Virus record (IMG/VR): IMGVR_UViG_2778261222_000004
Coordinates: 1 to 36,061 of that record
Length of the DNA: 36,061 bases
Source of the DNA: a virus
Taxonomy: Duplodnaviria; Heunggongvirae; Uroviricota; Caudoviricetes
Direction: 5' to 3' (one strand)
Under the pieces are notes generated by a model. It made no database searches, was not told where the DNA came from, and saw only the letters and a program-made list of their open reading frames with translations. The position numbers and the translations under genes are program-made. Within the stretch, counting starts at the first letter, position 1. Every line of letters starts with the position of its first letter. This document shows positions 9,082 to 35,325 of the stretch, piece after piece.

Positions 9082-10041
9082 ATGAAAATTTGTATCGACG
9101 ACGGCTCCACCAACATCAAGCTGGCATGGACTGAGAACGGCGAACGCCGCAACGCCATCAGCCCGAACAGCTTCAAGTCGGAATGGTCTGCGCCGTTCGG
9201 TGGCACGCAGCCCGCGAACTACATGCTTGATGGTGTGCGCTATGGTTTTGATCCGGTCAGCGATCGCTTTGTCCAGACGACCGACACGCAATACCAGTAC
9301 AGCGATGTGAATGTCATTGCCATTCATCACGCGCTGGTCAAATCAGGCATCACGCCACAGGAGGTGGATGTGGTTGTCACCCTGCCACTGAGCGAGTATT
9401 TCGACACAAACGCACAGCCGGACATGGCCAACATCAACCGCAAAAAAGCGAACGTTATGCGCCCGGTGGAGTACCAGAACGGCGAAGCATTCACTATCCG
9501 TAACGTGCGGGTTATGCCTGAATCCATTCCGGCTGGCTTTAAAGCACTGGCCGACATGAGTCCGTTTGAATCCCTGCTGATTGTGGATTTGGGCGGAACC
9601 ACGCTGGATGTGGCAAAGGTTCAGGGGCAGCTGGCAGGTATCAGCCAGGTGTTTTGCGATCCACACGTAGGCGTTTCTCTGATGGCCGATGCCGTGCTGT
9701 CGGTGATGGCCACCAACGGTATGCGCACCAGTCACCACATCGCCAATACCATTATCGAACATCGCCACGATGAAGCCTGGCTGCGCCAGCACATCCACAA
9801 TGACGCGCATTACGCCAGCCTGATGGCAGTTATTCGTGAAAAGGAAGAAACACTGAAACAACGCGTGATCCGCGCGCTGGCGGGTTTTTCGGGTTACGGG
9901 CGGGTGATGGTTGTAGGTGGAGGAGCGGAGATTGTGGCACCCGCTATCTGCGAAGCCTGCGGAGTTAATGCGACTTTCATCGCGGACGGGGTGCCACAGT
10001 TTGCTCTGGTTAATGGGCTGTACGCAATGGACCAGGAGTAA
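9082..10041 (+). CDS. parM: actin-like plasmid segregation ATPase ParM (StbA family)
   Basis: 319 aa; N-terminal phosphate-1 block ICIDDGSTNIKLAW, DVNVIAIHHAL, VMPESIPAG, LLIVDLGGTTLD and MVVGGGAE blocks align by eye along the whole length with plasmid R1 ParM. Confidence 0.9.
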   Translation: MKICIDDGSTNIKLAWTENGERRNAISPNSFKSEWSAPFGGTQPANYMLDGVRYGFDPVSDRFVQTTDTQYQYSDVNVIAIHHALVKSGITPQEVDVVVTLPLSEYFDTNAQPDMANINRKKANVMRPVEYQNGEAFTIRNVRVMPESIPAGFKALADMSPFESLLIVDLGGTTLDVAKVQGQLAGISQVFCDPHVGVSLMADAVLSVMATNGMRTSHHIANTIIEHRHDEAWLRQHIHNDAHYASLMAVIREKEETLKQRVIRALAGFSGYGRVMVVGGGAEIVAPAICEACGVNATFIADGVPQFALVNGLYAMDQE

Positions 10042-10045
10042 ATCA

Positions 10046-10360
10046 ATGACGACACCAACCAGACGGATAAGTTTCTATCTGAAGCCCACCGTCGTCAAGA
10101 GCGAACGGGAGGCGTGCAGTTACCTCGACAGCCTGCCAGCCTCCGAACGCAGCCGCGCACAACGCGCGGCTTTTCTGGCCGGACTGGCTCTTATAAAACG
10201 CACCCCCGCGTTGGCGTATTCGCTGGCAGAATGGTCAGAAGACGAAATACGGATGCCACCGCTACCAGTACAGCCTGAAAAACCGGCGCAACCAGCAGCA
10301 GACAGCGCCCCCCATATGCAGCAGGTGAAAAAGAATATTCAGGCGTTTTTCCCGAAGTGA
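10046..10360 (+). CDS. parR: ParR-like centromere-binding adaptor (ribbon-helix-helix)
   Basis: ATG 10046 with AGGAG about 7 nt upstream, 4 nt after the parM stop; N-terminal block ISFYLKPTVVKSEREACSYLDSLPASERSRAQRAAFLAGLAL resembles R1 ParR; the ORF-track start 9917 lies inside parM and is rejected. Confidence 0.7.
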   Translation: MTTPTRRISFYLKPTVVKSEREACSYLDSLPASERSRAQRAAFLAGLALIKRTPALAYSLAEWSEDEIRMPPLPVQPEKPAQPAADSAPHMQQVKKNIQAFFPK

Positions 10361-16411: not shown

Positions 16412-17122
16412 ATGCCAACGCCAATGCAGCGACAACGTGCCCGACAGATGGATGAGCGCCGTGCGGCGCTCATGACCACAACGGACGGACGCGCCATCAG
16501 CACAGAGAGTCAGCACATTAAGCTGCTGGCACTGGATAACGATGTCAGACAACTGCACAACATGGAGCTGCTGTCTGACAAGCTGGAATTCAAACGGAAC
16601 ACGCTGCTGCCCCGCTGGCTGCCACACGCACAGGCTTATCTGGAGGGGGAACGCGTCTATCAGAATCCCATTCTGGTGTACTGCATCATCTGGCTGTTCG
16701 ATACCGGGCAGTTTGAGATGGCGCTGCGGTGGGCTGACATTGCCATTGAGCAGGGACAAAAGACGCCGGAGAACTTCAAAAGCGAGCTGCCAACGTTTGT
16801 GGCCCATTTCATTCTTGAATGGGCAGAAACCGAAGCTGAACGTGGGAACAGTATCGCGCCATATTTTCAGCAGGTGTTTGAAAAAATCCGTGACAAATGG
16901 CGCGTGAATGAACGCCTTGCTGCCAGCTACTGGCGCTTTGCAGGCGTCCTGCTGCTGCGCGGCGATGACGGTAAACCGCTGGCCAGTGCAATTAACGATC
17001 CGGAGAGACTGCAACAGGCCGACCAGTGTCTGGAACGGGCTGCCTGGCTGCATCCAAAAATTCAGGTGAAAACCCTGCGCCAGCGCATTGCCGCAAGACT
17101 GCGCGCGTTGCAGGGCACGTAA
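16412..17122 (+). CDS. terminase small/endonuclease subunit (P2 gpM-like)
   Basis: 236 aa, position after the capsid gene as in P2. Confidence 0.7.
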   Translation: MPTPMQRQRARQMDERRAALMTTTDGRAISTESQHIKLLALDNDVRQLHNMELLSDKLEFKRNTLLPRWLPHAQAYLEGERVYQNPILVYCIIWLFDTGQFEMALRWADIAIEQGQKTPENFKSELPTFVAHFILEWAETEAERGNSIAPYFQQVFEKIRDKWRVNERLAASYWRFAGVLLLRGDDGKPLASAINDPERLQQADQCLERAAWLHPKIQVKTLRQRIAARLRALQGT

Positions 17123-17220
17123 ACGACTCCCAACAACCGGGCGGGCGCGGTGGAGGTGTGCCGGCAAAAGCCATCAGCACACTGCGGAAACCGGTCAGCC
17201 CGCCTTTCCCCGGAGTGAGC

Positions 17221-17715
17221 ATGTTTGACGGGAAAAGCATTCACTATCAGCAGGCCATTATTCAGAACGATGGATTCTGGCCGGATATTGATGCCGGCGA
17301 TTTTGAAAAGAGCCGCAGCATCCCCGCCGTCACGTCACACGAAACGGTGCTGACGGCACTGCTTTGCGCGGTAACAGAGATTAACACTGAACTGGCTGCA
17401 CGCCGTGAATACTGGCAGGAACAGGGCCACATCCGGGCCGCCGATATTCCGGGTTACACCGTGTTGCAACCAGAGCCGCGCAATACGGATGCACAACCTG
17501 AACGGATGCAGAACCACATTACAGCACTGTACACCAAGGCTGTGTATGCCCGCGCAAAGGCCGATCTTTTGCCGGAATCTGCCAGCGTGGGGCGACGCGA
17601 GGCGCAGCCCTCATCAGAAGCCAGCGAGAGCCGCCGGACGTTGCTGGCTGAAGCGGCCATGGCGGTGCGGGCGCTGCTGGGCCGACCGCGTGCATCCATC
17701 GCGCTGATTGATTAA
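17221..17715 (+). CDS. head completion/stabilisation protein (P2 gpL-like)
   Basis: ATG 17221 preceded by GGAG; position after gpM; the ORF-track start 17026 is an unlikely upstream extension. Confidence 0.65.
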   Translation: MFDGKSIHYQQAIIQNDGFWPDIDAGDFEKSRSIPAVTSHETVLTALLCAVTEINTELAARREYWQEQGHIRAADIPGYTVLQPEPRNTDAQPERMQNHITALYTKAVYARAKADLLPESASVGRREAQPSSEASESRRTLLAEAAMAVRALLGRPRASIALID

Positions 17716-17724
17716 GGAAATGGT

Positions 17725-18198
17725 ATGACGCAACTCGCCAGCCTGACGGCATTCATTGAAAACAATCTGCCGGCACGCGCACGCATTCCGTTCACCAGTG
17801 ACATGGACGACATCACGCTCGTTCCGTTTACGAAGTCGCTGGGGCACGGGCAGTTATGTACGCAGGTCCGAAAATATACGGCTTTTCTGCGATGGGACGC
17901 ATGGCCCTATCGTCAGCTCAATCCGGATTTGGTGTTTTCTCTGGTTGAAGCCTGGCTGGCAGACAACGGCGGCGACCTGCGCCAGCGCCTGGCACCGGAT
18001 GCGCCAGCCGTTGACGTCGAAGTGGATGATGAAAATGAAGTGGCATGGCTGGAAATCAGTCTGCCGCTGGTTGATCCCATCACCCTGGTTGAGGACGAAA
18101 ACGGCCCCATCCCCAGAGGCGGGAAACGTTACCAGCTGGAAAAGCCTGAAATCTGGGTGGCTCAGGCGCATCAGCTTCACTGTCAGGTGATGCCATGA
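17725..18198 (+). CDS. putative tail completion / head-tail joining protein (gpR-like)
   Basis: 157 aa, position and size only; stop overlaps the next start. Confidence 0.4.
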   Translation: MTQLASLTAFIENNLPARARIPFTSDMDDITLVPFTKSLGHGQLCTQVRKYTAFLRWDAWPYRQLNPDLVFSLVEAWLADNGGDLRQRLAPDAPAVDVEVDDENEVAWLEISLPLVDPITLVEDENGPIPRGGKRYQLEKPEIWVAQAHQLHCQVMP

Positions 18199-18908
18199 CG
18201 CGCCCAGTGATTAACGAGTCACAACTCCGGCAGGTTCGTCGCGCCATCAGAGAGGCAGAACTTCCGCCTGCAAAGGCCAGAAAGCTGCTGGTTCGCATTG
18301 CGAAATACGGCCTGATACCGGCTGCACGACGCAATGTGAAAGCACAGCGAACACCGGAGGGGGCAGCCTGGGCACCACGAAAAAGACCGGATAAAGCCAG
18401 CGGCAGGTATAAAAACAAAATGCTGCTGGGACTGCCGAAACTGCTGGCCATCAGGGTTGACGGCAGCGGGAAAAGTGTCCGCCTTTTCTTCAAAAAAGGG
18501 GCTTACAACACCGGCTCTCATGGTGGGGCGGTCGCGTGGGTGCAACAGCACGGCGCAACCATCAAAGGCCGCGCCACAAAGCGCCGGGACAGCGAAGCCA
18601 TGCGCACCCGTCCCGCCACACGACGGCAGGCAGAACGCCTTCTTTCTCTGGGCTTTCGCGCCCCCGTCGGCGCAGTCAGCAAAAAGACCGGGCGCAGGGG
18701 GCGCAGAAAACCTTCCCTGAAATGGATTATGGAAAACATGAGTATGGCGCAGGCCGGACTGGTGATCAGCATTCTGAAAGGCGAGCAGAAAAAACGTGTA
18801 TGGGAAATCAAAATCCCCTCCCGCGCATTTCTGGGAGCCAGCGATGCTGAATTTGCCCGCATTCTGGAAGCGCAGCTGCGCAGCCTGCATTACGGCGGCA
18901 CGAGATAA
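18195..18908 (+). CDS. putative virion morphogenesis / tail completion protein (gpS-like)
   Basis: 237 aa basic protein, translationally coupled to the upstream gene; assignment by position. Confidence 0.4.
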   Translation: MTRPVINESQLRQVRRAIREAELPPAKARKLLVRIAKYGLIPAARRNVKAQRTPEGAAWAPRKRPDKASGRYKNKMLLGLPKLLAIRVDGSGKSVRLFFKKGAYNTGSHGGAVAWVQQHGATIKGRATKRRDSEAMRTRPATRRQAERLLSLGFRAPVGAVSKKTGRRGRRKPSLKWIMENMSMAQAGLVISILKGEQKKRVWEIKIPSRAFLGASDAEFARILEAQLRSLHYGGTR

Positions 18909-18928
18909 CAAAAATCAGGAGACAAACC

Positions 18929-20077
18929 ATGACATGGCCATCTGTCACGATTGAACAGTACAACACATTCAGCAGTTCACCGGACGGCGTGGAAAATACG
19001 CTGCTGTTTGTGGGCAATGCACAAAACAACAAAGGTGAGGTTCTGCCGGTTAATGCCAACAGCGATCTGGATGAGCTACTGGGAAAGAACGCCAGCCCGC
19101 TGAAGAACTTCCTTCAGTCTGCACTGACCAATGCCGGACAGAATGCCTTTTTCTATGTTGCCGTTCTGCCGGAAGCCGGCAAAGGCAAAGAAGCAACGCC
19201 AGCCTGCCAGGTATGGCAGAACGCCATACTGGCGGCTCAGGAAACTGTTTCAGTTGAAGGCGTGGTGATCACCGAGCCGGTCAGCACGAAGGATGACATC
19301 AACGCCATACAGGCGTTACGTCAGACCATCATCAATAAATATCAGCGCCGCATCTGGTTCATCCTGACCATCGCCGCCAACGACAACAGTAAAACCTGGG
19401 CGGAATACGTTGCCGAACTGACCGCACTACAGAAAGGCATTGCAGCCCCGCAGGTCATGCTGGTTCCGGAGATTTTTGGATTTGAACCGGGCGTTCTTGC
19501 CGGTCGCCTGTGTAACAGCGCCGTCACCATTGCTGACAGTCCGGCACGTGTGGCAACCGGGCCCCTGTCCGCACTGAAAACCACAGAACGCCCGAAAGAC
19601 AGCACAGGGCAGGCAATTGATCTCGACACTCTGCAGGCGCTGGCAACCGCCCGCTACAGCGTGCCCATGTGGTATGCCGACTATGACGGCCTTTACTGGG
19701 CTGACGGTGTAACACTTGAGGTGGAAGGCGGGGACTACAACGTCATTGAGCATGTCCGCATTGCTGATAAGGTGGCGCGCCGCGTGCGGCTGATGGCCAT
19801 CCCCAAGATTGCCGACCGCTCGCTGAACAGCACGCCGGGCAGCATTGCCGCACATGAAACGCTGTTTGCCCGCCCACTGCGTGCCATGGCGAAATCCATG
19901 CAAATTAACGGCATCACGTTTCCGGGCGAAGTGAAATCGCCCCGGAAAGGCGACGTGGTTATCACCTGGCAGGACGAAAAGACGGTCAGCATCAGCATTG
20001 TCGTCCGCCCTTACGCCTGCCCTAAAACCATCAAAGTGGGCATTCAGCTGGATAAATCTCTGGAGGAAAACGCATGA
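18929..20077 (+). CDS. putative tail sheath-like protein
   Basis: 382 aa, immediately precedes a small tube-like protein; not similar to P2 FI by eye. Confidence 0.45.
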   Translation: MTWPSVTIEQYNTFSSSPDGVENTLLFVGNAQNNKGEVLPVNANSDLDELLGKNASPLKNFLQSALTNAGQNAFFYVAVLPEAGKGKEATPACQVWQNAILAAQETVSVEGVVITEPVSTKDDINAIQALRQTIINKYQRRIWFILTIAANDNSKTWAEYVAELTALQKGIAAPQVMLVPEIFGFEPGVLAGRLCNSAVTIADSPARVATGPLSALKTTERPKDSTGQAIDLDTLQALATARYSVPMWYADYDGLYWADGVTLEVEGGDYNVIEHVRIADKVARRVRLMAIPKIADRSLNSTPGSIAAHETLFARPLRAMAKSMQINGITFPGEVKSPRKGDVVITWQDEKTVSISIVVRPYACPKTIKVGIQLDKSLEENA

Positions 20078-20529
20078 CGACCCGCATTAACGGCATGGCG
20101 TTTGACACTTTTATCGGTGGAACGGATATCCATGTGAAAAGCATCTCACTGGACATCAGCGATGAAAGCGCCGTTGCCAAAACCCGTGGCATCCCTGACG
20201 GCAAACTGCGCGGCCCTGTCAGTGCCGAAGGTGAAATCGAAATGAGTACCCGCAGCTTTAACCAGCTCGGGGAAGTGGCTGCTCAGGCGGGATCGTGGCG
20301 TGACCTGCCGCCAATGGATTTTGTGTTTTACGCCAACACGGGAACCGAAGAAATCCGCGTTGAAGCCTTCGGTTGTGAGCTGATGCTTTCCGGCCTGTTA
20401 AGCATTGACACCGAGAGCGCAGATCTGACCACGCACAAAATCAAGTACGTGGTGGCAAGCCCTGACTTTGTGCGTATCAACGGCGTGCCCGTTCTCTCAG
20501 AGAACGACGTGCGCGGACTGATGGGGTGA
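20074..20529 (+). CDS. putative tail tube-like protein
   Basis: 151 aa, start overlaps the sheath-like stop; size and position consistent with a tube protein. Confidence 0.45.
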   Translation: MTTRINGMAFDTFIGGTDIHVKSISLDISDESAVAKTRGIPDGKLRGPVSAEGEIEMSTRSFNQLGEVAAQAGSWRDLPPMDFVFYANTGTEEIRVEAFGCELMLSGLLSIDTESADLTTHKIKYVVASPDFVRINGVPVLSENDVRGLMG

Positions 20530-20532
20530 ACC

Positions 20533-20829
20533 ATGCAGGAGCATGAGCGCACCATTATCACTCTGGGTATTCTGGGCGGAATCGCTGCCGCAAGTCGGGT
20601 GCTGGCTGGCGCAGAGCCGATTACGTTGCGGTTGTTTGTGGGCCGAACCCTGCTGGGGAGCGCGCTGGGTGTTTCTGCCGCTGCCCTGCTGGTTCGCTAC
20701 CCGAACCTTGACCCACTGGCCATTGCCGGCGCAGGCACCGCAATGGGCGTTGCCGGTTACCAGATTGTTGAAATCTTCCTGCGTCATATGCGCCGGAAGC
20801 TGGGCGAGAAAGAGAACAAAGAGGAGTAA
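20533..20829 (+). CDS. holin (P2 gpY-like class)
   Basis: 98 aa with hydrophobic segments (IITLGILGGIAAASRVLAG, TLLGSALGVSAAALLV, AIAGAGTAMGVAGYQIV) and a charged C-terminus; directly upstream of the endolysin. Confidence 0.55.
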   Translation: MQEHERTIITLGILGGIAAASRVLAGAEPITLRLFVGRTLLGSALGVSAAALLVRYPNLDPLAIAGAGTAMGVAGYQIVEIFLRHMRRKLGEKENKEE

Positions 20830-20834
20830 CAGCA

Positions 20835-20936
20835 ATGCTGTCCCGCAGGGAACAAAAAGCTGCCGCCATTGCCTGGAAAATTATCCGGGCACTGTGGTAC
20901 TGGCTGCGCAAACCTCAGCAACCTCATAAGGAGTAA
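20835..20936 (+). CDS. small cationic amphipathic peptide in the lysis cassette (33 aa)
   Basis: ATG 20835 with GAGGAG 8 nt upstream; MLSRREQKAAAIAWKIIRALWYWLRKPQQPHKE; stop 3 nt before the endolysin start, whose RBS AAGGAG lies inside it; absent from the ORF track (under 60 aa). Confidence 0.3.
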   Translation: MLSRREQKAAAIAWKIIRALWYWLRKPQQPHKE

Positions 20937-20938
20937 AA

Positions 20939-21280
20939 ATGAAACTCTCCGATAAGCAACAACAATTTACCGTCATGATCGGAAAACTCATCCAGTTTGC
21001 CCATCAGCGCGGTTATGGCCTGACGTTCGGTGAGGCGTACCGCACGCCAGAACAGGCAAAACTCAACGCACAAAAGGGATCCGGCATTGCCAACAGCCTG
21101 CACTGCCAGCGGCTGGCCGTGGATTTTAATCTGTTTATTAACGGTGAATATCAGACCCGCACAGAGGCCTACCGTGAGCTGGGCGAGTACTGGGAATCCC
21201 TTGGTGGCGCATGGGGCGGTCGTTTTAAAAACCGACCGGATGGCAATCATTTCAGCCTTGAGCACGACGGCGTGCGCTGA
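20939..21280 (+). CDS. endolysin, peptidase M15-like (D-Ala-D-Ala carboxypeptidase / L-Ala-D-Glu peptidase fold)
   Basis: 113 aa; blocks GEAYRTPEQAKLNAQKGSGIANSLHCQRLAVDFNLF and GGRFKNRPDGNHFSL match the His/Asp zinc-binding pattern of M15/VanY-like phage endolysins. Confidence 0.8.
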   Translation: MKLSDKQQQFTVMIGKLIQFAHQRGYGLTFGEAYRTPEQAKLNAQKGSGIANSLHCQRLAVDFNLFINGEYQTRTEAYRELGEYWESLGGAWGGRFKNRPDGNHFSLEHDGVR

Positions 21281-21287
21281 TTTTACG

Positions 21288-21317
21288 CTTAATAAGCCTT
21301 CCTGCAGGCTTATTAAG
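21288..21317 (+). terminator. perfect 12-bp hairpin after the endolysin (terminator or operator)
   Basis: CTTAATAAGCCT - TCCTGC - AGGCTTATTAAG; followed by a pyrimidine-rich stretch and a TTGACT hexamer ahead of the tail-chaperone gene. Confidence 0.4.
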
Positions 21318-21344
21318 CCCTCTTATTCTTGACTTTAAAAGGAA

Positions 21345-21638
21345 ATGATGATGAACGATAAAAACACACAGACTACCGCAGAGAACACCATCACTTTACA
21401 GGTCGGCGAGCATGAACTGACGTTTATCCCGACCGTAAAAGCCTACAACGACCTGCAGAACGACTTCATGCCGGATAACAAAATCGCGCCGCTGAAAAAC
21501 TACCTGCGCCGTATCGTGATTAAAGAGCACCGCGATCTGCTGAACCAGTTGCTGGAAAAACCAGGAATGCCGGCCAGCCTGGCAACAGCCGTGAATAACG
21601 AGTTTGTGCCGGAAGTGGAAATCACCGTAAAAAAATAA
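21345..21638 (+). CDS. tail assembly chaperone (gpE / lambda G-like), zero-frame product
   Basis: 97 aa directly upstream of the tape measure gene; ends ...ITVKK-stop on a run of A residues. Confidence 0.6.
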   Translation: MMMNDKNTQTTAENTITLQVGEHELTFIPTVKAYNDLQNDFMPDNKIAPLKNYLRRIVIKEHRDLLNQLLEKPGMPASLATAVNNEFVPEVEITVKK

Positions 21639-21826
21639 AAAGCCATCTGGGGGCCATTGATCGCAATGACCTGACCCGGATGCTGATTCTGCGCCGCCAC
21701 TGGCTGCCCGGCGAGGATGACTCGCCGCAGTCACTGGCTGCCGCCGTCTGGCTGGATAACCACTACTGGGAAAATATGAGCATCGCCGTCAATAACGGCA
21801 TTATCCGTGCTTTTAAGGGATCGTAA
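21345..21826 (+). CDS. tail assembly chaperone frameshift product (gpE-E' / G-T type), via -1 programmed frameshift
   Basis: Slippery heptamer A-AAA-AAA at 21629-21635; the -1 frame is open from 21629 to stop TAA at 21824-21826, which overlaps the tape measure ATG (21826). Confidence 0.5.
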
Positions 21827-23922
21827 TGTCACAACAGCGCCTTGAATTACTTCTTGAACTGACAGATCGCCTGACAAGGCCGTTGCGTGCAGCCGGGCGA
21901 CAGGTTCAGGGATTTGCTGCAACAAGTCGGGGAGCCTTTCGGGACATTGCTACCGGAGGCGCTGCGCTCTGGGGAGTGGGGGCAGCCATTCAGGGGGCAC
22001 TGATGCCAGCCATTGAAATGGACAGGGCGCTCGGTGAGGTGAAATCACTGGGCGTCGCAGAGTCCGGATTGCGTAAACTCAGCCGCGCCGCCGTTGATTT
22101 CACTATGGAATACGGCGGGGCTGCGCAGGATTTTGTGCGTGCTTCTTACGACATCCAGTCAGCCATTGCCGGGTTAACTGACGATGAGCTGTCCCGCTTC
22201 ACCACCGCATCAGCAACGGTGGCAGCAGCAACCAAATCCAGCAGCCAGACCATTACCGCCTACATGGGCACCATGTACGGCATCTTTAAAGACCAGGCTG
22301 ATGCCATGGGAAAAAGCAAATGGGTGGAGCAGGTCGCCGGGCAAACCGCCACCGCCGTGCAAATGTTTAAAACAACCGGCGATAACATGTCAGCGGCGTT
22401 CACCACGCTGGGTGCCAGTGCAAAAGCGGCCGGTATTGATGCGGCTGAACAGTTCGCCGTGCTGGGACAACTGCAGGCCACCATGAGTGGCAGCGAGGCC
22501 GGGACAAAGTACAAGGCATTTCTTGCCGCAGTAGGCAGCGCCCAGAAAAAGCTGGGGCTTAATTTCGTGAATAAAGACGGCACGATGAAAAGTGTTGTCG
22601 AGATCATGAAACTTATCAGGGGCAAATTTGGTGATCTGTCAAAAGTGGCTGATTCCGATTTGCTGAAAAGCGCCTTTGGCTCCGATGAAGCTGTGGCCAT
22701 GATTAAATTACTCAATGCGGACATTGGCGGACTTGAAAAGAATATCGCCACGCTGGGCAATATCAAAGGTATGGATAAGGCTGTCGAAATGGCGCAGGCC
22801 ATGGCTGATCCATGGGAACAGGCCGCCGCAATTATTAACGGCATTCGCATCGAAATCGGCACGCAGTTGCTGCCTGTTCTGTACCCGTTTATCCAGAAAA
22901 GCAACGAAGGCGGTAAATCCTTTGTTGCCTGGTTACGTCTGTATCCCAATATTACACGGGCCATTGGTTTACTGTCTGCCGCCCTGCTGGGCATTGCCGC
23001 AGTGGGTGCTGTTGTCAACATTATGGTGGGTGTGGCGAAGTTTGTCTGGACAGGACTGCGGCTGGTCTGGCTGGCAGCCGTTGCGCCGCTGAAGATTCTC
23101 ATTCTGCTGAAACGCACACTGACGGCTACCATGTGGGCGTTCACTGTAGTTGCCCGAACGGTCAGGGCGCTGTATCTGGCCATGTCCATTGCTATGGGAA
23201 CATACAACGTCAAAGCAAAAATTCAGCTGGCGCTGCTGAAATTACAGCGCGCCGGACTCTGGCTTTATTCTGTTGCGCTGGGTGCCGCCGGCATAGCAAT
23301 GAAAATCTACACCGCAGTCACCAGCGGAGCCGCAATTGCAACACAGTTACTTTTCAGCCCCATCACATTAATCATCCTGGCACTGGCTGCGCTGGGCGTG
23401 GGCATTTATTTCCTGATCACCCGCTGGGATGAAATCAAAGCTGCACTGATGGATACCGCTGCATTTCAGTGGGTTGCCGGCATCATTAACAGCATGGGGG
23501 CGTGGTTCGGCAATGCATGGAGTGCAATCAGGGATGGCTGGAATGCACTGGTTAACTATTTTTCCACCCATTCACCACTGGATGCCCTGAAGGATCTCGC
23601 CGGCGGCATACTGAAGATTTTCAGTAATCTCTGGGAACTGGTGAAACAGTCCTTCAGTGATTCATGGGGCTGGATTGTGGACAAACTCAACATGATCCCC
23701 GGCGTTAACATCGGCACATCAGAAAGCACAGGAAGTGGCGAAGGCTCCGTATTAACCGGCGGTAAAGCCATCAGCGCGGGGCCGGGTGGCATTGCGGCAG
23801 AAATGCAGAACAACAGCGAAAACCAGACCACAATCGACAACTCCCGTCGTGTAGTCAACGTCAATGTGCAGGATCCATCCCCTGCCCGTCTTAACGAGTG
23901 GATGGAGCTGCATGCATACTGA
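21826..23922 (+). CDS. tail tape measure protein
   Basis: 698 aa, Ala/Gly-rich with hydrophobic central segments, immediately after the chaperone and frameshift pair. Confidence 0.85.
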   Translation: MSQQRLELLLELTDRLTRPLRAAGRQVQGFAATSRGAFRDIATGGAALWGVGAAIQGALMPAIEMDRALGEVKSLGVAESGLRKLSRAAVDFTMEYGGAAQDFVRASYDIQSAIAGLTDDELSRFTTASATVAAATKSSSQTITAYMGTMYGIFKDQADAMGKSKWVEQVAGQTATAVQMFKTTGDNMSAAFTTLGASAKAAGIDAAEQFAVLGQLQATMSGSEAGTKYKAFLAAVGSAQKKLGLNFVNKDGTMKSVVEIMKLIRGKFGDLSKVADSDLLKSAFGSDEAVAMIKLLNADIGGLEKNIATLGNIKGMDKAVEMAQAMADPWEQAAAIINGIRIEIGTQLLPVLYPFIQKSNEGGKSFVAWLRLYPNITRAIGLLSAALLGIAAVGAVVNIMVGVAKFVWTGLRLVWLAAVAPLKILILLKRTLTATMWAFTVVARTVRALYLAMSIAMGTYNVKAKIQLALLKLQRAGLWLYSVALGAAGIAMKIYTAVTSGAAIATQLLFSPITLIILALAALGVGIYFLITRWDEIKAALMDTAAFQWVAGIINSMGAWFGNAWSAIRDGWNALVNYFSTHSPLDALKDLAGGILKIFSNLWELVKQSFSDSWGWIVDKLNMIPGVNIGTSESTGSGEGSVLTGGKAISAGPGGIAAEMQNNSENQTTIDNSRRVVNVNVQDPSPARLNEWMELHAY

Positions 23923-24262
23923 TAAACCGCTTTACATTGATTTGCTCATCACCGGCCGCAATCTCACGCTGAACAGCGCCAGTGAACCAGTGTTATGCAA
24001 CAACAGGGAAAGTATTGCCCAGGACTGCCAGCACGCCATCATTGAGAGCGGACTGGCAACGCGCCTGCTGGCTGAAAAAAGCCCGACGCTTCGTGCCGAC
24101 ATCATGATGCAGATGACACTGCTGATTGAAGATGATGAGCGCATCACACCTGGCACGGTCAGTGTGACAGAAGAAACCCCGCTTTCTGGTCGCCTGCTGA
24201 TTAGCGCCCACACCGAAGATTTTTTTGAACCCCTGACTTTTACGGTATCTCTTGATGATTAA
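23912..24262 (+). CDS. putative baseplate wedge protein (gpW / gp25-like)
   Basis: ATG 23912 overlaps the tape measure stop; 116 aa immediately upstream of the J-like baseplate gene; the ORF-track start 23864 is unlikely. Confidence 0.4.
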   Translation: MHTDKPLYIDLLITGRNLTLNSASEPVLCNNRESIAQDCQHAIIESGLATRLLAEKSPTLRADIMMQMTLLIEDDERITPGTVSVTEETPLSGRLLISAHTEDFFEPLTFTVSLDD

Positions 24263-25439
24263 CGGCAAACCTACCGCAGATTACGAGCGCATTCTGGCTG
24301 ATAATGGCATGCCGGTAACCGAAGAACAGGCACGTGCTGAATTTGAAGCCATTGTCAAAGACGAAGGGCTTATCACCAACACATCCCGCATGTCGCCGTT
24401 CTGGCGACTGATTACAGCTATCACCACAAAACCCGTGATGTGGCTGAAAGATGCGCTGGTTAATGTGGTGATGAAAAACCTGTTTCTGGCTGATGCCAGC
24501 GGTGTATTCGTTGATGTTTTTGCCTGGGCGGTAAACCTGCAACGCAAGGCTGCCACGCACGCAGCCGGCGTGATTCGTTTCACCAAAAACGACATTGATC
24601 ACGCAGTTACCGTGCCGGCCGGTACGCAGATTCAGACAGAACGCATTAACGGCGTGATTTATACGCTGACCGTTGTCAGGGATACCGTTATTCCGGCAGA
24701 AACACTCAGCATGAACATCGATGTTTCTGCGGAACAGGCCGGAGCCGGCTTTAACCTTGCGCCGGGATATTACCGCATCCTTCCGGTGGCGATTGATGGT
24801 ATTGCCGGTGTTGAGAACGATGAAAACTGGCTGACCACACCGGGAGCCAACGAAGAAAGCGATGACGAGCTGCGTGATCGTGTTCGCAATCAGTTTAATC
24901 TTGCCGGCGCTTATCACACCGATGCAGTTTACCGGGGATTAATTGCCGGCGTTGCCGGCATCAGTGCCGACCGCATCTATTTTCTGCATGACGCACCACG
25001 CGGCCCCGGCACAGCAAATGCTTACATTCTGCTGGATACCGGCATCGCATCCGAACCGTTCGTTGATGCAGTAAACGCATTCATTAACGATGAAGGTCAT
25101 CACGGACACGGTGATGATCTGCGCTGTTTTTCCATGCCTGAAACACGCCACACCCTGACCGTGACACTCTGGTTATATGCAACGCTGAACCTCAGCGATG
25201 GGGAAATTCAGACGTTATTGCGCAATGTGGAAAATCTGGTTCGCTGTGCATTTCGAGAAAACAGCGATTATGACGTTCAGAAAACATGGCCGTATAGCCG
25301 TTTCAGCATGTCCAGACTGGGCGAAGAGATCCACCAGGTATTTCCACAGGTGGAGTCGGTTACATTTTCTCTTCCGGATATTCTCAGTGATCTGGCTGTT
25401 CCTCGTCTGGAATCCCTTACTGTGGAGGTGAGCGCGTGA
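24255..25439 (+). CDS. baseplate J-like protein
   Basis: About 394 aa, size and position of P2 gpJ / Mu gp47-type baseplate proteins; ATG 24255 (the ORF track lists the TTG at 24252). Confidence 0.75.
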   Translation: MINGKPTADYERILADNGMPVTEEQARAEFEAIVKDEGLITNTSRMSPFWRLITAITTKPVMWLKDALVNVVMKNLFLADASGVFVDVFAWAVNLQRKAATHAAGVIRFTKNDIDHAVTVPAGTQIQTERINGVIYTLTVVRDTVIPAETLSMNIDVSAEQAGAGFNLAPGYYRILPVAIDGIAGVENDENWLTTPGANEESDDELRDRVRNQFNLAGAYHTDAVYRGLIAGVAGISADRIYFLHDAPRGPGTANAYILLDTGIASEPFVDAVNAFINDEGHHGHGDDLRCFSMPETRHTLTVTLWLYATLNLSDGEIQTLLRNVENLVRCAFRENSDYDVQKTWPYSRFSMSRLGEEIHQVFPQVESVTFSLPDILSDLAVPRLESLTVEVSA

Positions 25440-26067: not shown

Positions 26068-27768
26068 ATGAGCACGATTATTACTGAACAGTACGAACAC
26101 TGGTGCGCAAATCAAATCATCAGTGGAAAACCTGCGCGCCCGGATACATTTGTTTTTGCATATATTCCGGGACAGGATGAATCCGCAGAGATCCCCCGCG
26201 ATGAGATACTCCCTGATGAATCCATGATTCAGTATCGTGCGCCGGTCACCCAGTACGGCCACCTGTCGCCGAACGCGACCGCGTTTTCCATCATTCTGGA
26301 CACGACAGTCGGCGACTTCGAATACAACTGGATCGGTCTGCTGAACGAAGAAAGCGGCGTGCTCTGCATGATTGCACACACACCTCGTCAGCAAAAAATT
26401 AAAACAGCGAACGGCGTGCAGGGAAACAACCTGATCCGCACATTTTCCATGGAGTTTGACGGCGCAGCCGCAGCAATGCATATCGATGTCAGCGCTGATG
26501 TCTGGCAGATTGATTTCACTGCACGCCTTGCAGGAATGGATGAGGCCCGCCGGCTGCTGGCGTTTGATCACTACGGTGAAGCCGCTTTTCTGGGGGATGG
26601 TTTTCAGGTCAGCTATCAGGACGGTACCGCTACTGTTGCCGCCGGCGTGGGTTATGTGGGAGGTCTGCGCGTCAGTCTGCGCGAACCTTACAGCCTGCCG
26701 GCTGCGGTCGGGGATACCCTCTGGATTGATGCAAGCTGGCAGGGATTTGTTACTGGCGAATGGAATACCGTTTTTACGTTCTGCGCCCGCCAGGAACATG
26801 CGTCTTATACAGACGGTAACGGCTTCCGACACTTTGTCGCGCCACTTGCAAAAATGACAGGAGACGGCCCACAGGACCTGCGCCCGGAGACACCCGACGA
26901 AGAACAAAGCAATGCACTGGCAGAGCACGAAAAATCCCGCCATCATCCGGACGCAACACTGCAGGAGAAAGGCTTTGCGCAGTACAGCAACTCCACCGAC
27001 AGCGACGCAGAAGACCGCGCCGCCACATCAAAGGCAGTAAAAGCCGCAATGGATAAAGCAAAAGACGCTGTTGAGCGCGACGGCGACACCATGACCGGGG
27101 AACTGAAAATCCGTGGTGTTAATGCACTGAGGATTTTCAACGAAGCTTTTGGCCTGATTTTTCGTCGTTCGGAAGAGTGCCTGCACCTTATCCCTACCAG
27201 TGAAGGTCAGGGCGAGAATGGCGATATTGGCCCCCTGCGTCCGTTCACTATTAATTTGCGGACGGGTGAAGTTTCCATGTTACACGCAGTATCTGTTGGC
27301 GGTGGTTCGAAAGTTAACGGTGCGTTGGGTATCGGCGTTCAGAATGCGCTGGGCGGAAACTCAATTGCTTTCGGGGATAACGATACCGGCCTGAAACAGA
27401 ATGGTGATGGCCTGCTGGATGTTTATGCCAATAGCGTGCATGTGTTGCGTTTTCAGAGTGGCAGCATTCAGAGTAATAAACCTGTAAACGTTACCGGGCG
27501 GGTAACACCGTCAGACTACGGAAACTTTGATGCCCGTTACCAGACCAAAACAGGCGGCGTGCAGGATGTGCGTTATGGTTCCGAAATGTATTACAACCCG
27601 GGAGGTAACCAGATATCCTGGACATTTCGCTCACCTTCAGGCCATGGATTATCTGGTATTAATGTGCAGGAAACCGGAAGTAATTCGGCAGATAACATCG
27701 GCGGCGTGTATTACCGACCGCTTCAGAAACTGATTAACGGCACCTGGTATAACGTGGCGAGTGTTTAA
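26068..27768 (+). CDS. tail fibre protein 1
   Basis: 566 aa; N-terminal domain shared with fibre 2 (conserved ...PARPD...F... start), Gly/Ser/Asn-rich C-terminal receptor-binding region. Confidence 0.8.
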   Translation: MSTIITEQYEHWCANQIISGKPARPDTFVFAYIPGQDESAEIPRDEILPDESMIQYRAPVTQYGHLSPNATAFSIILDTTVGDFEYNWIGLLNEESGVLCMIAHTPRQQKIKTANGVQGNNLIRTFSMEFDGAAAAMHIDVSADVWQIDFTARLAGMDEARRLLAFDHYGEAAFLGDGFQVSYQDGTATVAAGVGYVGGLRVSLREPYSLPAAVGDTLWIDASWQGFVTGEWNTVFTFCARQEHASYTDGNGFRHFVAPLAKMTGDGPQDLRPETPDEEQSNALAEHEKSRHHPDATLQEKGFAQYSNSTDSDAEDRAATSKAVKAAMDKAKDAVERDGDTMTGELKIRGVNALRIFNEAFGLIFRRSEECLHLIPTSEGQGENGDIGPLRPFTINLRTGEVSMLHAVSVGGGSKVNGALGIGVQNALGGNSIAFGDNDTGLKQNGDGLLDVYANSVHVLRFQSGSIQSNKPVNVTGRVTPSDYGNFDARYQTKTGGVQDVRYGSEMYYNPGGNQISWTFRSPSGHGLSGINVQETGSNSADNIGGVYYRPLQKLINGTWYNVASV

Positions 27769-27770
27769 TA

Positions 27771-28322
27771 ATGTTGCATTTAAAAAATATTACTGCGGGC
27801 AATCCGAAAACCGCAGAACAATATCAGATGACAAAACAATATGGTGTCACCTGGCTTTTTTCGGAAGACGACAAAAACTGGTATGAAGAACAGAAGAACT
27901 TTGCCAGCGACACAATAAAAATGGTTTACACCGGGGACGGGCGCGTGGTGTGGGTCGGTAAGGATATGACAGGCATTGAACCCCGTAATGCCAGTGTTAT
28001 TGAAGTTCCGGATATTACCGCTAACCGCCGCATCACTGCACCGGGTTACTGGTTTTACCGCAATGATGAATTTGTCTTCGATTACAAATTAAAAGCAGAA
28101 GACGAGCGTGATGCCCTGTTAAAACAGTCCAGCATCATGACCTGCGAGTGGGAAAAAGACCTGCTGCTGGGATTAATCAGCGACGAAGACAGGGAAAAAC
28201 TGAAAGCCTGCCGTATTTATACAAAAAAGTTACGAGAGATGACATTCAGCCAGGTTACAGATAAAGCATCGTATGCCGCGATTGTATGGCCAGAATTACC
28301 GCAGAACATTAGCGAGAATTAA
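27771..28322 (+). CDS. tail fibre assembly chaperone 1 (gpG / Tfa-like)
   Basis: 183 aa immediately after fibre 1; C-terminal block AAIVWPELP typical of Tfa-type chaperones; AT-rich. Confidence 0.7.
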   Translation: MLHLKNITAGNPKTAEQYQMTKQYGVTWLFSEDDKNWYEEQKNFASDTIKMVYTGDGRVVWVGKDMTGIEPRNASVIEVPDITANRRITAPGYWFYRNDEFVFDYKLKAEDERDALLKQSSIMTCEWEKDLLLGLISDEDREKLKACRIYTKKLREMTFSQVTDKASYAAIVWPELPQNISEN

Positions 28323-28328
28323 GAAGTA

Positions 28329-30368
28329 ATGAGCGCACTGTTAACAAAAGCATTTGAAAAGTGGGTTGCTGAATGCACTGCCAGTAATTTACCTGCACGC
28401 CCTGACGCTATTATTTTTGCCCTGATGGAGCGGGAACCAACGCGCGAAGACAATACCGTTCCGGAAGACAGAATCACATACGCTGTGAATGAACTGACCT
28501 GTGGCCAGTTAAGCCAGGACACTATTGTGTGCAGCGCCGTTGTTCCTGATGACTGTGTTTTCAGTTATGACTGGATTTGTCTCATCCATCAGGCCAGTGG
28601 AACGTTATGCGGCGTAATAAAAACTCCCGTCAGACAGAAAACGACAGGTGAGTCACTCGTCCGCAATTTTACAATCACCTACAGAGGCATTGCTCAGTCC
28701 GCGCAAATCAGCGTCCCTCCCCAGAGCTGGCAGGTGGATATCACTCCGGAGCTGAAAACAGCACTGAAAACTCCTAATCACCTGTCAGAAATTGCAGCAG
28801 AAGGCGAAGAGGCGCAACAGGAATCCCGCGACAATCTGGGACTGAAAGTTTCAGCCATAATGGAGCCACAGGGTGATATTCGAGACCGGACTGAAGGTTG
28901 TCTGGCGATACCGGGCGCATTTGGTTTTGGTCATATTTTTATTCCGGGTGATGCTGTCAGGTTTAACAACGAGGCTGATTTGCTGGCATGGGTAAGATGT
29001 GTGGAACCCGGAGAATATTATGTGGAGGGGGGAAGCGGAGTACTTCCCGGCATCGCCTTCCGGGGGATGATAAGTATCCGCTGGCTGGAAGCAGAACGCT
29101 CCACACCTCTGCCACCACATACAGCAAAGGCCATTATTTTCTATGGCATTAACGGTGATATTTATTACAACCGTTACTGGAGTACAGGAAATGGATTGCT
29201 GACTGGCTGGGAAAACCTGAAAGTCAACGAGGCTTCACTCAGGGCGCTGATTGAAACCCGCGCGCCGCTGAACAGCCCGGCGTTCACCGGTACGCCAACC
29301 ACACCAACCCCACCGGATGATGCGGTCGGGCTGGAGATGGCGAACGCGGCGTTTGTCCGCAAACTGCTCGCTGCACTGGTTGGCTCATCTCCGGAAGCCC
29401 TTGACACACTGAATGAGCTGGCAGCGGCGCTGGGCAGTGACCCGAATTTTGCAACGACGGTCACTAACGCGCTTGCAGGCAAACAGCCACTTAGTGATGT
29501 TTTAACCGCCATCAGCAGGTTAAACGCTCAGGCAGATAATCTTCTGTACTTTGATTCGGACGGGAACGCATCGCTGACACGGTTGACGCCAGAAGCCCGT
29601 TCACTGCTGGCACAGGCCACACCGGAAGATATGCGCAGAGTGCTTGAGCTGGAAAGGTCAGACACTGTGGTGCCACAGAATAATATTTATGACCGCAGCG
29701 AAGGCGTGGTGGCCATTCCGGGGACGCTGGGATATGGAGGATATTACCGACATGAAGACAAAGTCATTTTCAGGGGAGAAAACGGCCCTGCTGATTTTAT
29801 TTCCTGGGTATCCACTACACCACCGGGCCGGTATGCGGTAGGAGACGGTACTTCATATAGCGCGCCTCAGATTATTGACAAGGAAAATCGTCTGGAAGGG
29901 ATTGTTGAAATTATTATTCCGGATACAGCCTCCTCGTCTTCGCAATCGCGTGCAGACAAGCTCATTATTTTCATGAGTAAGAAGGGAGAAATGTTTATCA
30001 ACTGGCTGAAATGGACCAGTGCCGGAGCCGGTCTGGCTGGCTGGGGAAATCTCAGCGCGAAGGGATTACGCTCTGCTGACTTCTGGGGAAACCCGGGGAT
30101 TGACGGAGTCACACTGGCAGCAATATCTGTCGCTGACCTTGCCTCACATAAGCGTGGGGACAGGATATCAGGCGAAAAGTTACGGCATGTATCGCTTATG
30201 TTTGAGAACAATGGTAATCCGTGCGCAGCGGCATCGGTTTACAACGTATCGATGATGTACGGGTTATTGCCGGGGTCCTATTTTATTCTGAATGGCTCCA
30301 GTCAGAGTCTGAACTGTGGGAATAAAGCCAATGCCTGGTGGATTTGCCTGGTGATGAGGGCAGAATAA
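28329..30368 (+). CDS. tail fibre protein 2 (P2 gpH-like conserved central motif)
   Basis: 679 aa; contains LNSPAFTGTPTTPTPPDDAVGLEMANAAFV ... SSPEALDTLNELAAALGSDPNFATTVTNALAGKQP, a block widely conserved in P2 H / Mu S / P1 S-type fibres. Confidence 0.85.
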   Translation: MSALLTKAFEKWVAECTASNLPARPDAIIFALMEREPTREDNTVPEDRITYAVNELTCGQLSQDTIVCSAVVPDDCVFSYDWICLIHQASGTLCGVIKTPVRQKTTGESLVRNFTITYRGIAQSAQISVPPQSWQVDITPELKTALKTPNHLSEIAAEGEEAQQESRDNLGLKVSAIMEPQGDIRDRTEGCLAIPGAFGFGHIFIPGDAVRFNNEADLLAWVRCVEPGEYYVEGGSGVLPGIAFRGMISIRWLEAERSTPLPPHTAKAIIFYGINGDIYYNRYWSTGNGLLTGWENLKVNEASLRALIETRAPLNSPAFTGTPTTPTPPDDAVGLEMANAAFVRKLLAALVGSSPEALDTLNELAAALGSDPNFATTVTNALAGKQPLSDVLTAISRLNAQADNLLYFDSDGNASLTRLTPEARSLLAQATPEDMRRVLELERSDTVVPQNNIYDRSEGVVAIPGTLGYGGYYRHEDKVIFRGENGPADFISWVSTTPPGRYAVGDGTSYSAPQIIDKENRLEGIVEIIIPDTASSSSQSRADKLIIFMSKKGEMFINWLKWTSAGAGLAGWGNLSAKGLRSADFWGNPGIDGVTLAAISVADLASHKRGDRISGEKLRHVSLMFENNGNPCAAASVYNVSMMYGLLPGSYFILNGSSQSLNCGNKANAWWICLVMRAE

Positions 30369-30940
30369 TGAAAATAATCGACATAAAGGCGATGAAATAC
30401 CTGGAAGACGGGTCTGTTTCCTGTGAAGTGTTGTTTGAAGGGCGGGCTGATTATATTCCTTATCGTGCAGTGGAAAATGATTCTGCTGCATCAGGCCAGC
30501 GGGTATGGGGAACACTGATGAGCGGTGAGTTTGGTGAAATCATCCCCTTCACTGTAACAGCAGAGATGCTGGACAAAGAAAAAGAACTGAAAAAAGAGGA
30601 AATCAGGCGCTGGCGAACAGAACAGGAGGCGCAGCCGTTCACATTCGAATGGAACAGCAGCACATGGAATGGAGGAAAATCCTCACTGGAACGCTTATTC
30701 CCGGCAGTGATGGCAGCAAAATCTGGTGTGGCACACAATGCCACAGTATGGAGTGATGCAAATAACCAACAAATTAAATTGTCACAACAAAAGCTGGAAG
30801 AACTACTTACGGCAATGGTGCAGGCTCAGGCTGCACGCAACGATGAGATTTACCTGCGCCAGCGTGAGATGAAAAACACGCTGGCCACACTGAATAACAT
30901 TGCTGCAATTAGGGCATTTCAGGTGGGCAAAGCAGAATGA
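30368..30940 (+). CDS. tail fibre assembly chaperone 2
   Basis: ATG 30368 overlaps the fibre 2 stop (TAATG), RBS GAGGG upstream; 190 aa; the ORF-track start 30338 is inside fibre 2. Confidence 0.55.
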   Translation: MKIIDIKAMKYLEDGSVSCEVLFEGRADYIPYRAVENDSAASGQRVWGTLMSGEFGEIIPFTVTAEMLDKEKELKKEEIRRWRTEQEAQPFTFEWNSSTWNGGKSSLERLFPAVMAAKSGVAHNATVWSDANNQQIKLSQQKLEELLTAMVQAQAARNDEIYLRQREMKNTLATLNNIAAIRAFQVGKAE

Positions 30941-35112: not shown

Positions 35113-35325
35113 ATGACGCAAAATGTACGATGCAAAAATTGCAACAAACTACTTGCCCGCGCCTCATTTCACTACATTGAAATAAAATGTCCGCGCTGCA
35201 AAACACTTAACCAGATAACGAGAGCCATTGAGCACCCCACACACATGAGGAGTTATGACCGTGGGGATCGCAATCCAGCACCAACCAGCACATACACCGG
35301 AACACACCAAGGTTTATCAGACTGA
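35113..35325 (+). CDS. com: Com-like zinc-finger translational activator (Mu Com family)
   Basis: N-terminal RCKNCNKLL ... IEIKCPRCK matches the Mu Com zinc finger almost exactly; ATG 35113 with AAGAGG upstream; 3' end overlaps the methyltransferase start as com overlaps mom in Mu. Confidence 0.8.
   Translation: MTQNVRCKNCNKLLARASFHYIEIKCPRCKTLNQITRAIEHPTHMRSYDRGDRNPAPTSTYTGTHQGLSD

Follow-up and report, generated by a model that had tools for sequence, protein, structure and literature searches.

The stretch of viral DNA analysed here (IMG/VR record IMGVR_UViG_2778261222_000004, 36,061 nucleotides (nt), below called the window) is a prophage whose lysis cassette contains, between the holin and the endolysin genes, an open reading frame (ORF) for a cationic peptide of 33 amino acids (aa). 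Judged by sequence comparison, this small ORF is a strong candidate, and the best one available, for a second disruptin that is not homologous to the first, gp28 of phage phiKT. The evidence comes from about 50 distinct syntenic loci that we gathered via their endolysin, holin and tube proteins and classed by the identity of the tube protein to that of the window. The loci fall into two classes, with tube identities of at most 59% and of at least 63%, respectively, and with no intermediates. There is no locus among them that has both the peptide ORF and spanins.

The lysis cassette and its two classes

The 36-kb window is a whole HP1-like (Peduoviridae) prophage, from the integrase through to the host gene raiA. 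A preliminary description of its sequence had placed a holin, a 33-aa ORF and an M15-type endolysin between the tube and the tail chaperone genes, and all three ORFs are indeed found there. The features of the cassette, all on the plus strand, are the following.

20074..20529, plus strand, tail tube protein of the HP1 Orf24 family (PF10772, E 1e-50; phrog_1182 'tail protein'), which is the left boundary of the cassette and the marker of the clade
20533..20829, plus strand, holin of 98 aa (PF04550 Phage_holin_3_2, E 5.5e-28; phrog_175 'holin', E 1e-32)
20821..20826, plus strand, Shine-Dalgarno-like GAGGAG, 8 nt 5' of the peptide ATG and within the final holin codons
20835..20936, plus strand, small peptide ORF of 33 aa, MLSRREQKAAAIAWKIIRALWYWLRKPQQPHKE
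20928..20933, plus strand, Shine-Dalgarno AAGGAG for the endolysin, made by the final codons of the peptide ORF
20939..21280, plus strand, endolysin of 113 aa, M15 family, VanY-like (PF13539 Peptidase_M15_4, E 3e-11; PHROG endolysin families)
21287..21318, plus strand, 13-bp perfect hairpin with a T-rich tail, within the 64 nt that correspond to the spanin slot of the relatives
21345..21638, plus strand, tail assembly chaperone (PF10963, E 1.6e-26; start at 21351 in the annotation by the Prokaryotic Genome Annotation Pipeline, PGAP), which is the right boundary of the cassette

In the loci with a tube identity of at most 59%, the distance from the holin stop to the endolysin start is typically -4 nt and ranges from -14 to +17 nt. 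The three outliers are L066, whose 50-nt gap is too short for such an ORF, L040, a degenerate locus of Ca. Erwinia dacicola, and L031, which is probably a holin frameshift. The endolysin and the chaperone genes of this class are separated by 463–521 nt (about 940 nt in two Yersinia loci). Every locus gives matches to an inner-membrane spanin (i-spanin) and to a lipobox-containing outer-membrane spanin (o-spanin), and none has the small ORF. The class with a tube identity of at least 63% comprises loci from Escherichia coli, E. albertii, Citrobacter, Yersinia and Plesiomonas. Those of its loci that have an M15 endolysin show a holin-endolysin gap of 81–118 nt, 32–106 nt after the endolysin (except for 326 nt in one Plesiomonas locus) and no spanin, and in every one of them the holin-endolysin interval consists of one ORF of 29–41 aa that overlaps or abuts both flanking genes. 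In Plesiomonas shigelloides L102 (4197-4460), the former spanin slot is occupied by an unrelated acidic ORF of 87 aa, for which there is no Pfam match, lipobox or transmembrane domain (TMD).

The order tube-holin-endolysin-spanin-chaperone is common to HP1 and about 40 related prophages. In HP1 itself it reads sheath (orf23), tube (orf24), hol, lys, orf25 (an Rz-like spanin), orf26 and orf27, and in ESSI2-like and SI7-like elements tube, holin, M15 endolysin, 'Rz-like spanin' and chaperone. In ESSI2_ev239, for example, the gene after that of the endolysin encodes a protein of 110 aa with an N-terminal TMD and is overlapped by a 99-aa lipobox ORF (LMTLSAC); the two take up the roughly 490 nt to the chaperone. 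These HP1-type cassettes share with the window the slot between an Orf24-family tube and the chaperone as well as the holin family, and the ESSI2/SI7 group also has the window's M15 endolysin at 70–80% identity. However, these cassettes are closed by the overlapping genes of an Rz-like i-spanin and a lipoprotein o-spanin, and their holin and endolysin genes enclose no further ORF, whereas the window clade shows the reverse. As position, holin and endolysin fit but the spanin component does not, the window cassette would be a derived variant of the HP1 type. The preliminary description had also set the tail-module position of the lysis genes against that in P2. P2 does differ in this respect, but there is nothing unusual about the position, since the slot between tube and chaperone is the canonical one for HP1-like Peduoviridae.

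In a neighbour-joining tree of sheath plus tube proteins, with HP1 (spanin orf25) as the outgroup, the peptide-bearing lineages form one clade nested among spanin-bearing ones. The simplest history would be a single ancestral event, or a short series of events, in which the spanin pair was lost and the peptide gene gained. The peptide gene was then kept through diversification over at least four genera. The window endolysin is 70–86% identical to the endolysins of spanin-bearing and spanin-less relatives alike. Since the sister clades use the same holin family and a 70–80% identical endolysin without the peptide, neither protein intrinsically needs it. Neither of two Proteus loci is an independent replicate of the exchange: that of Proteus hauseri (L033) is a decayed holin-endolysin remnant, and in Proteus phage Brookers the endolysin gene is followed by that of a 154-aa 'putative lysis protein', while the small ORF is missing.

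Absence of spanins from the prophage

The preliminary description had reported no Rz/Rz1-like pair near the cassette, and this holds for the entire 36-kb prophage, in which tblastn, lipobox, hydropathy and PHROG scans revealed no such pair and no unimolecular spanin either. The i- and o-spanins of the relatives (ESSI2, SI7), which by tblastn give matches in every ESSI2/SI7-like locus, have no match in the whole window, where the slot between endolysin and chaperone is 64 nt long. A search of all frames for embedded Rz1-like lipoprotein ORFs, as that description had proposed, was run as a relaxed lipobox scan of both strands of the window and returned one credible lipoprotein, an SPFH/Band_7 protein, and no o-spanin. 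The hydropathy scan of the window showed no i-spanin-like protein with an N-terminal TMD and a periplasmic coiled coil, no ORF in the window has the N-terminal lipobox and C-terminal TMD of a unimolecular spanin, and none of the 19 window proteins that are hypothetical or poorly named was assigned to a spanin family in a PHROG scan. The spanin-less state is real and typical of the whole clade.

Three ORFs with a lipobox-like motif were weighed as candidates and rejected. The SPFH/Band_7 lipoprotein (4314-5138, 274 aa, MKKLLPLIPLLMTTLLVGC followed by D), the only credible lipoprotein in the prophage, cannot be taken for an o-spanin because of its Asp at +2, which makes its retention in the inner membrane probable, its Band_7 domain and its location in the early region. 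The alternative-frame ORF at 21174-21332 ('MAIISALSTTAC...') lacks an n-region and a real h-region; it merely reflects the conservation of the endolysin C terminus, with which it overlaps, and is present in spanin-bearing relatives too. The hydrophobic 37-aa ORF at 2690-2803 belongs to the early region, and its lipobox is poor.

Two observations on these early genes stand apart from the question of spanins. Directly before the SPFH lipoprotein gene lies one for a 70-aa protein with two TMDs (4105-4317, phrog_1130 'membrane protein'), and the two genes look like a moron pair. The 37-aa ORF (MSIFISWLVLIISVACAIGIMRIIHSVKKIERFFTGE) is annotated by PGAP; its product is very hydrophobic, has a single TMD and matches no family.

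The small ORF as a gene

Protein-coding function of the small ORF was assessed from the ratio of nonsynonymous to synonymous polymorphism (pN/pS) over 18 distinct window-type alleles. In frame this ratio is 0.18, versus 1.17 and 0.95 in the other two frames, which points to selection on the amino-acid sequence; the values for the neighbouring holin and endolysin are 0.05 and 0.08. The ORF is open in at least ten divergent lineages (E. coli, E. albertii, Citrobacter, Yersinia, Plesiomonas and metagenomes) despite a peptide identity of about 20%. Its length variants are in frame: one codon is lost in L047/P0085, a QQP is duplicated in P0073 and three codons are lost in P0082. A comparison of L043–L063 and P0073–P0090 distinguishes two groups of alleles, beginning with MLSRRE... 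and MQSRRD..., respectively. In most alleles the window-type peptide has 35 aa, MLSRREQKAAAIAWKIIRALWYWLRKPQQPHKE(QK), and its stop codon overlaps the endolysin start as ATGA. In the window allele, a CAA-to-TAA change cuts the last two residues and abolishes this overlap. Purine-rich motifs resembling a Shine-Dalgarno sequence precede the equivalent ORF in other lineages too, and the position of the endolysin Shine-Dalgarno sequence inside the end of the peptide ORF, together with the tight packing of the genes, is compatible with translational coupling.

The window peptide has no match in Pfam, PHROGs or NCBIfam, and tblastn against phages gave none either. Two protein databases were searched with the family, one by a word-indexed method with an alignment headed by a 41-aa homologue (5.8 billion proteins) and the other exhaustively with a hidden Markov model (1.84 billion representatives). 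Apart from two repetitive false positives, the searches returned only members of the same clade, and no informative names. The ORF is called by gene callers in L105 and L106, and PGAP leaves it unannotated in the identical E. coli chromosome. On the strength of its sequence record, the small ORF is a conserved gene family that standard annotation (PGAP, Pfam, PHROGs, NCBIfam) has missed.

Other ways of reading the interval were examined and rejected. In L097, L099, L106, L109 and L064 the endolysin frame contains no stop 5' of its start until within the peptide region or the holin gene, and these lineages could formally make an endolysin isoform with an extended N terminus. The window type has a stop three codons 5' of the endolysin ATG, and the pN/pS of this frame is about 1, which rejects such an isoform. 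The 128-aa alternative-frame ORF that overlaps the holin gene (20543-20929) is also in the endolysin frame, with a pN/pS of about 1 over the peptide region. A readthrough or frameshift fusion with the holin is rejected because the holin, peptide and endolysin genes are in three different frames and the types of junction vary among lineages.

Character of the peptide family

The peptide had been described as cationic and amphipathic, and calculation bears this out. The window peptide has a net charge of +6, three Trp residues and a helical hydrophobic moment (muH) of 0.62–0.71, which is in the range of melittin, magainin and phiKT gp28. The maximum Kyte-Doolittle mean over 19 residues is 0.41, i.e. 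there is no hydrophobic stretch of TMD length. With the family alignment as input, AlphaFold2 predicts one helix, residues 4–25, at a mean predicted local distance difference test score of 76. The other peptides of the family are as follows.

Citrobacter: MLSHKEQKAAAVAWKIVRALWHWLRKPQQPRKEQK
Second E. coli type: MNLSDRQKKIITIVWRILRALIKRPGRQQTQKDNTR
L109: MNTTDRQWRVIATLWRYGQALWRLWKKLRNSNRRE
L064: MTGKKASPGILSGMRQFAVKVWQLLRSLQKLRNSMNGKTRP
Yersinia: MNKHQLHRLLRLAYWLWQCISKNRKKGGF
Plesiomonas: (M)NKLKLTNLIKLVHAILNIWRWLKNDKKGSHHDTL and (M)SAEKWRRRLEGVTRLLNFISAVWRKHNEQKDKRE
L105: MTDKKRQKVTDIVNIIRLISWAWRALRNKNATRESK
L106: MTSPQQRKARITALFRFIGWVWRALRSSAPNQQPKKDRK

Aligned at about 20% identity, these sequences show a near-invariant Trp in an amphipathic stretch, which is followed by a basic polar tail. 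All members have 29–41 aa, a net charge of +5 to +9 and one to four Trp residues, and none has a TMD or a Cys-lipobox, so that in size (below 80 aa) and charge (at least +4) they stay within the limits set here for a disruptin. The highest 19-residue Kyte-Doolittle mean in the family is at most 0.76, and muH is 0.61–0.94 versus 0.73 for gp28, i.e. comparable to gp28 and LL-37. In size, charge and amphipathic helix the window peptide is similar to LL-37 and melittin, but it is encoded by a phage and made inside the target cell. The clustering of Trp and Arg (LWxWLRK) presumably resembles that of tritrpticin or lactoferricin-type motifs.

Comparison with phiKT gp28 and other lysis systems

About 13–15% of the phages of Gram-negative hosts have no recognisable spanin. 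The one alternative outer-membrane disruptor that we found validated in the literature is the 'disruptin' gp28 of phiKT, which is needed for disruption of the outer membrane and complements lambda Rz/Rz1 (Holt et al., bioRxiv 10.1101/515445; later J Bacteriol). A 2026 paper still treats as an open question whether spanin-less phages generally encode disruptins. According to Holt et al. (bioRxiv 10.1101/515445), gp28 is a protein of 56 aa and charge +7 that is predicted to form amphipathic helices and lacks a localisation signal. Endolysin gene 27 and holin gene 29 flank its gene. Association with membranes and bactericidal action of the synthetic peptide are further functional marks of the class that it founded. 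Hence, both gp28 and the window peptide are small, cytoplasmically made and cationic, with a predicted amphipathic helix and no signal sequence, TMD or lipobox, and both are encoded between a holin and an endolysin in a genome without a spanin. The phiKT holin gp29 is, moreover, a member of PF04550 (E 2.4e-9) and is 28% identical to the window holin in BLASTP (E 1e-11). The phages themselves are very different, as the window is a temperate HP1-like myovirus prophage with an M15 peptidase, whereas phiKT is a virulent T7-like podovirus with an endolysin of the T4-lysozyme type. The window family is also Trp-rich, unlike gp28. What gp28 and the window candidate share is thus gene position, the family of the partner holin, a predicted physicochemical class and a spanin-less context, and not ancestry.

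The step that the peptide would carry out, the breach of the outer membrane, is presumed to be the same as that of lambda Rz/Rz1 and P2 LysB/LysC, and it is a spanin pair that occupies the adjacent slot in the sister phages. Its mechanism cannot be the same, i.e. fusion by a complex that spans the periplasm, as the window has neither a coiled-coil protein with an N-terminal TMD nor an outer-membrane lipoprotein. Lcc6 of LambdaSo, RIII of T4 and releasin of Mu are likewise products of small extra genes in or near a lysis cassette that could affect holin or endolysin action. However, Lcc6 and releasin are transmembrane proteins, whereas the window peptide has no TMD, and LambdaSo, T4 and Mu retain their spanins. 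The preliminary description had named an antiholin as the alternative. The window holin has a single start (MQEHE...), not the dual start of a holin isoform, and the peptide has neither a TMD nor similarity to the holin, unlike a membrane protein paralogous to it. It may still be a soluble antiholin in the manner of RIII.

Proposed function

The explanation that we favour, at about even confidence, is that the peptide is a non-homologous functional analogue of the phiKT disruptin and, as an outer-membrane disruptor, would do the job of the lost spanins. An ancestor of the clade lost the overlapping i-spanin/o-spanin pair that every sister lineage has directly behind the endolysin, and its descendants have the peptide gene between holin and endolysin instead. 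The peptide would be made in the cytoplasm from the late transcript, probably with translational coupling to the holin and the endolysin. The holin is of the HP1 type, with about three hydrophobic segments (hydropathy segments 8–26 and 36–54) and a basic C-terminal tail. The soluble endolysin has neither a signal nor a signal-anchor-release (SAR) sequence, so large holin lesions would be needed for its release. Upon triggering of the holin, the peptide and the endolysin would reach the periplasm together, or the peptide may by then have partitioned into the membranes. Binding of the peptide to the anionic lipopolysaccharide (LPS) and the outer membrane would weaken the latter, which would rupture after the endolysin had removed the murein.

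The idea of a disruptin-like function was already part of the preliminary description. It gains comparative support from the occurrence of the gene exactly in the spanin-less clade, from purifying selection across genera and from the gp28-like gene position, but homology to gp28 is not borne out. The wider proposal, which we put forward at slightly less than even confidence, is that the family would be a second, independently evolved disruptin, a single-helix, Trp-rich peptide of 29–41 aa that replaced a two-component spanin in a temperate clade of Peduoviridae, with recurrent swaps of this kind, PF04550 holins as partners and tracking of LPS.

Several observations weigh against a disruptin. 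The peptide gene evolves faster than its neighbours, with a nucleotide diversity of 0.075 versus 0.026 for holin and endolysin (about threefold) and a pN/pS of 0.18 versus 0.05–0.08. The allele of L056 is truncated by a stop codon that follows Pro27, and that of P0090 contains a frameshift. No homology of gp28 to the peptide family was detected by hhalign (probability 0.4%), and the members of the family are shorter, with 29–41 aa and one helix versus 56 aa and several helices. As the loss and the gain fall on one branch, the correlation between them is effectively a single evolutionary event. Furthermore, the lineage of Edwardsiella ictaluri prophages (L103, L104 and L111), which is nested in the clade beside a Plesiomonas lineage, has a GH108 + PG_binding_3 endolysin in place of the M15 endolysin and the peptide. 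Its gene order is holin, GH108 endolysin, chaperone, and 20 kb of its late genes contain neither the peptide or another small cationic ORF nor a spanin. This looks like a secondary replacement of the segment made up of peptide and endolysin genes. Since the lineage persists without an identifiable disruptor, such phages may not require an outer-membrane disruptor, or the peptide may be linked in function to the M15 endolysin.

Alternative explanations

The survival of the Edwardsiella lineage without peptide or spanin would also be in agreement with a factor that sets the timing of lysis, either a cytoplasmic antiholin or pro-holin that acts on the basic C-terminal tail of the holin, or a helix in the inner leaflet that tunes the proton-motive-force threshold; the loss of the spanins would then be unrelated and tolerated. 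The peptide gene is located directly 3' of the holin gene and is coupled to it, small accessory lysis proteins that act at the level of the holin exist (Lcc6 of LambdaSo), and, as Holt et al. pointed out, holins could be triggered by cationic peptides that depolarise the inner membrane. However, such a gene is missing from the sister clades, whose holins are of the same family, the peptide lacks a TMD or any similarity to the holin, unlike membrane antiholins, and its restriction to spanin-less loci would be left unexplained. We consider a timing factor rather unlikely. The Edwardsiella replacement bears in a different way on the possibility that the peptide is an accessory of the M15 endolysin, helping in its release, activation or targeting, and was lost along with it when the GH108 enzyme was gained. 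Within the clade the peptide co-occurs perfectly with M15 and is absent with the GH108 endolysin, and its stop codon overlaps the endolysin start. On the other hand, about 40 relatives with spanins have M15 endolysins that are 70–80% identical and do their work in the absence of the peptide, a releasing factor would be required for a signal or SAR domain, of which the endolysin has neither, and a single recombination from the end of the holin gene to the start of the chaperone gene removes both genes regardless of any functional link. Such a role is improbable.

The remaining two explanations deny the peptide a function of its own or deny that the spanin is missing. The ORF could matter only in that its translation hands ribosomes on from the holin to the endolysin gene, as a spacer, or it could be a fast-evolving leftover. 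This would agree with its start and stop, which overlap or abut the flanking genes in all lineages, with its low conservation (about 20% identity) and high nucleotide diversity, and with the lack of a PGAP call. But no relay is needed, as the relatives couple holin and endolysin by a 4-nt overlap. The in-frame pN/pS of 0.18 and the maintenance of charge, Trp content and amphipathicity in lineages whose DNA is unalignable also speak against a product without function, to which we assign little probability. That a spanin escaped detection, being highly atypical or encoded outside the late region, is very improbable. Nested or embedded spanin genes have been overlooked before (LambdaSo), and the window does encode one lipoprotein beside a two-TMD protein. 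However, this SPFH protein of 274 aa has Asp at +2, a Band_7 domain and an early location, no other credible candidate emerged from the lipobox scan in all frames of both strands, tblastn with the spanins of the relatives was negative, and the window covers the entire prophage.

Other features of the prophage and its distribution

The hairpin at 21287-21318 is the terminator-like site with the strongest stem within 17000-24500 (fold energy -21 kcal/mol, z -3.9). Hairpins are present at the equivalent place in L096, L097, L064 and L109; that of L097 has a T:A pair changed to A:T, i.e. a compensatory change, and those of L064 and L109 differ in their stems. The Yersinia loci have a different, GC-rich hairpin there, and the deeper branches L105–L107 have none. 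The window hairpin probably acts as an intrinsic terminator or attenuator that separates the sheath, tube and lysis genes from the chaperone and tape-measure genes.

The late genes are of the P2/HP1 type and comprise those of the portal, terminase, GPO scaffold, P2-family capsid, sheath (DUF2586/phrog_907), tube (HP1 Orf24 family), tail chaperone and tape measure. The 2-kb stretch that was queried is 100% identical to an E. coli chromosome, in which the right end of the prophage is formed by a Com/DNA-methyltransferase pair and is followed by the host genes raiA and bamD. Of 5,426 complete E. coli genomes, 42 contain the cassette of the window, which also occurs in E. albertii and in numerous contigs from IMG/VR and metagenomes. 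A megablast search of phage genomes with the cassette gave no match, and none of the sequenced phage isolates has a tube at least 60% identical to that of the window, so the clade is known from prophages and metagenomes only.

Several other genes deserve mention. A ParM gene and one for a plasmid partitioning/stability protein (9082-10360), resembling a ParMR segregation module, are located inside this integrase-bearing, chromosomal P2/HP1-like prophage. Two sets of tail-fibre and assembly-protein genes follow one another at 26068-30940. The second fibre is an intact ORF of 679 aa (28329-30368), for which PGAP gives two pseudogene fragments, one of them labelled 'shikimate transporter'; this split looks like an annotation artefact. 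Near the right end are a toxin gene of the Hok/Gef family (PF01848, 34720-34860) and, at 35113-36061, a Com-family zinc-finger regulator gene overlapping that of the DNA methyltransferase, a layout that recalls com/mom of Mu.

Implications

The sister phages come close to a natural experiment, in which the holin family, the endolysin and the synteny are the same and a spanin pair is exchanged for a small cationic peptide. If the peptide is indeed a disruptin, its family would be the second one and unrelated to the first, and a spanin module of about 490 nt would be replaceable by about 105 nt. The members of the family would then form a sequence-diverse panel of natural Trp-rich peptides that are active on enterobacterial outer membranes, and their fast evolution may track the LPS of the hosts. 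Swaps of spanins for peptides would be a recurrent evolutionary route, with holins of the PF04550 type, as in phiKT, as the repeated partner.

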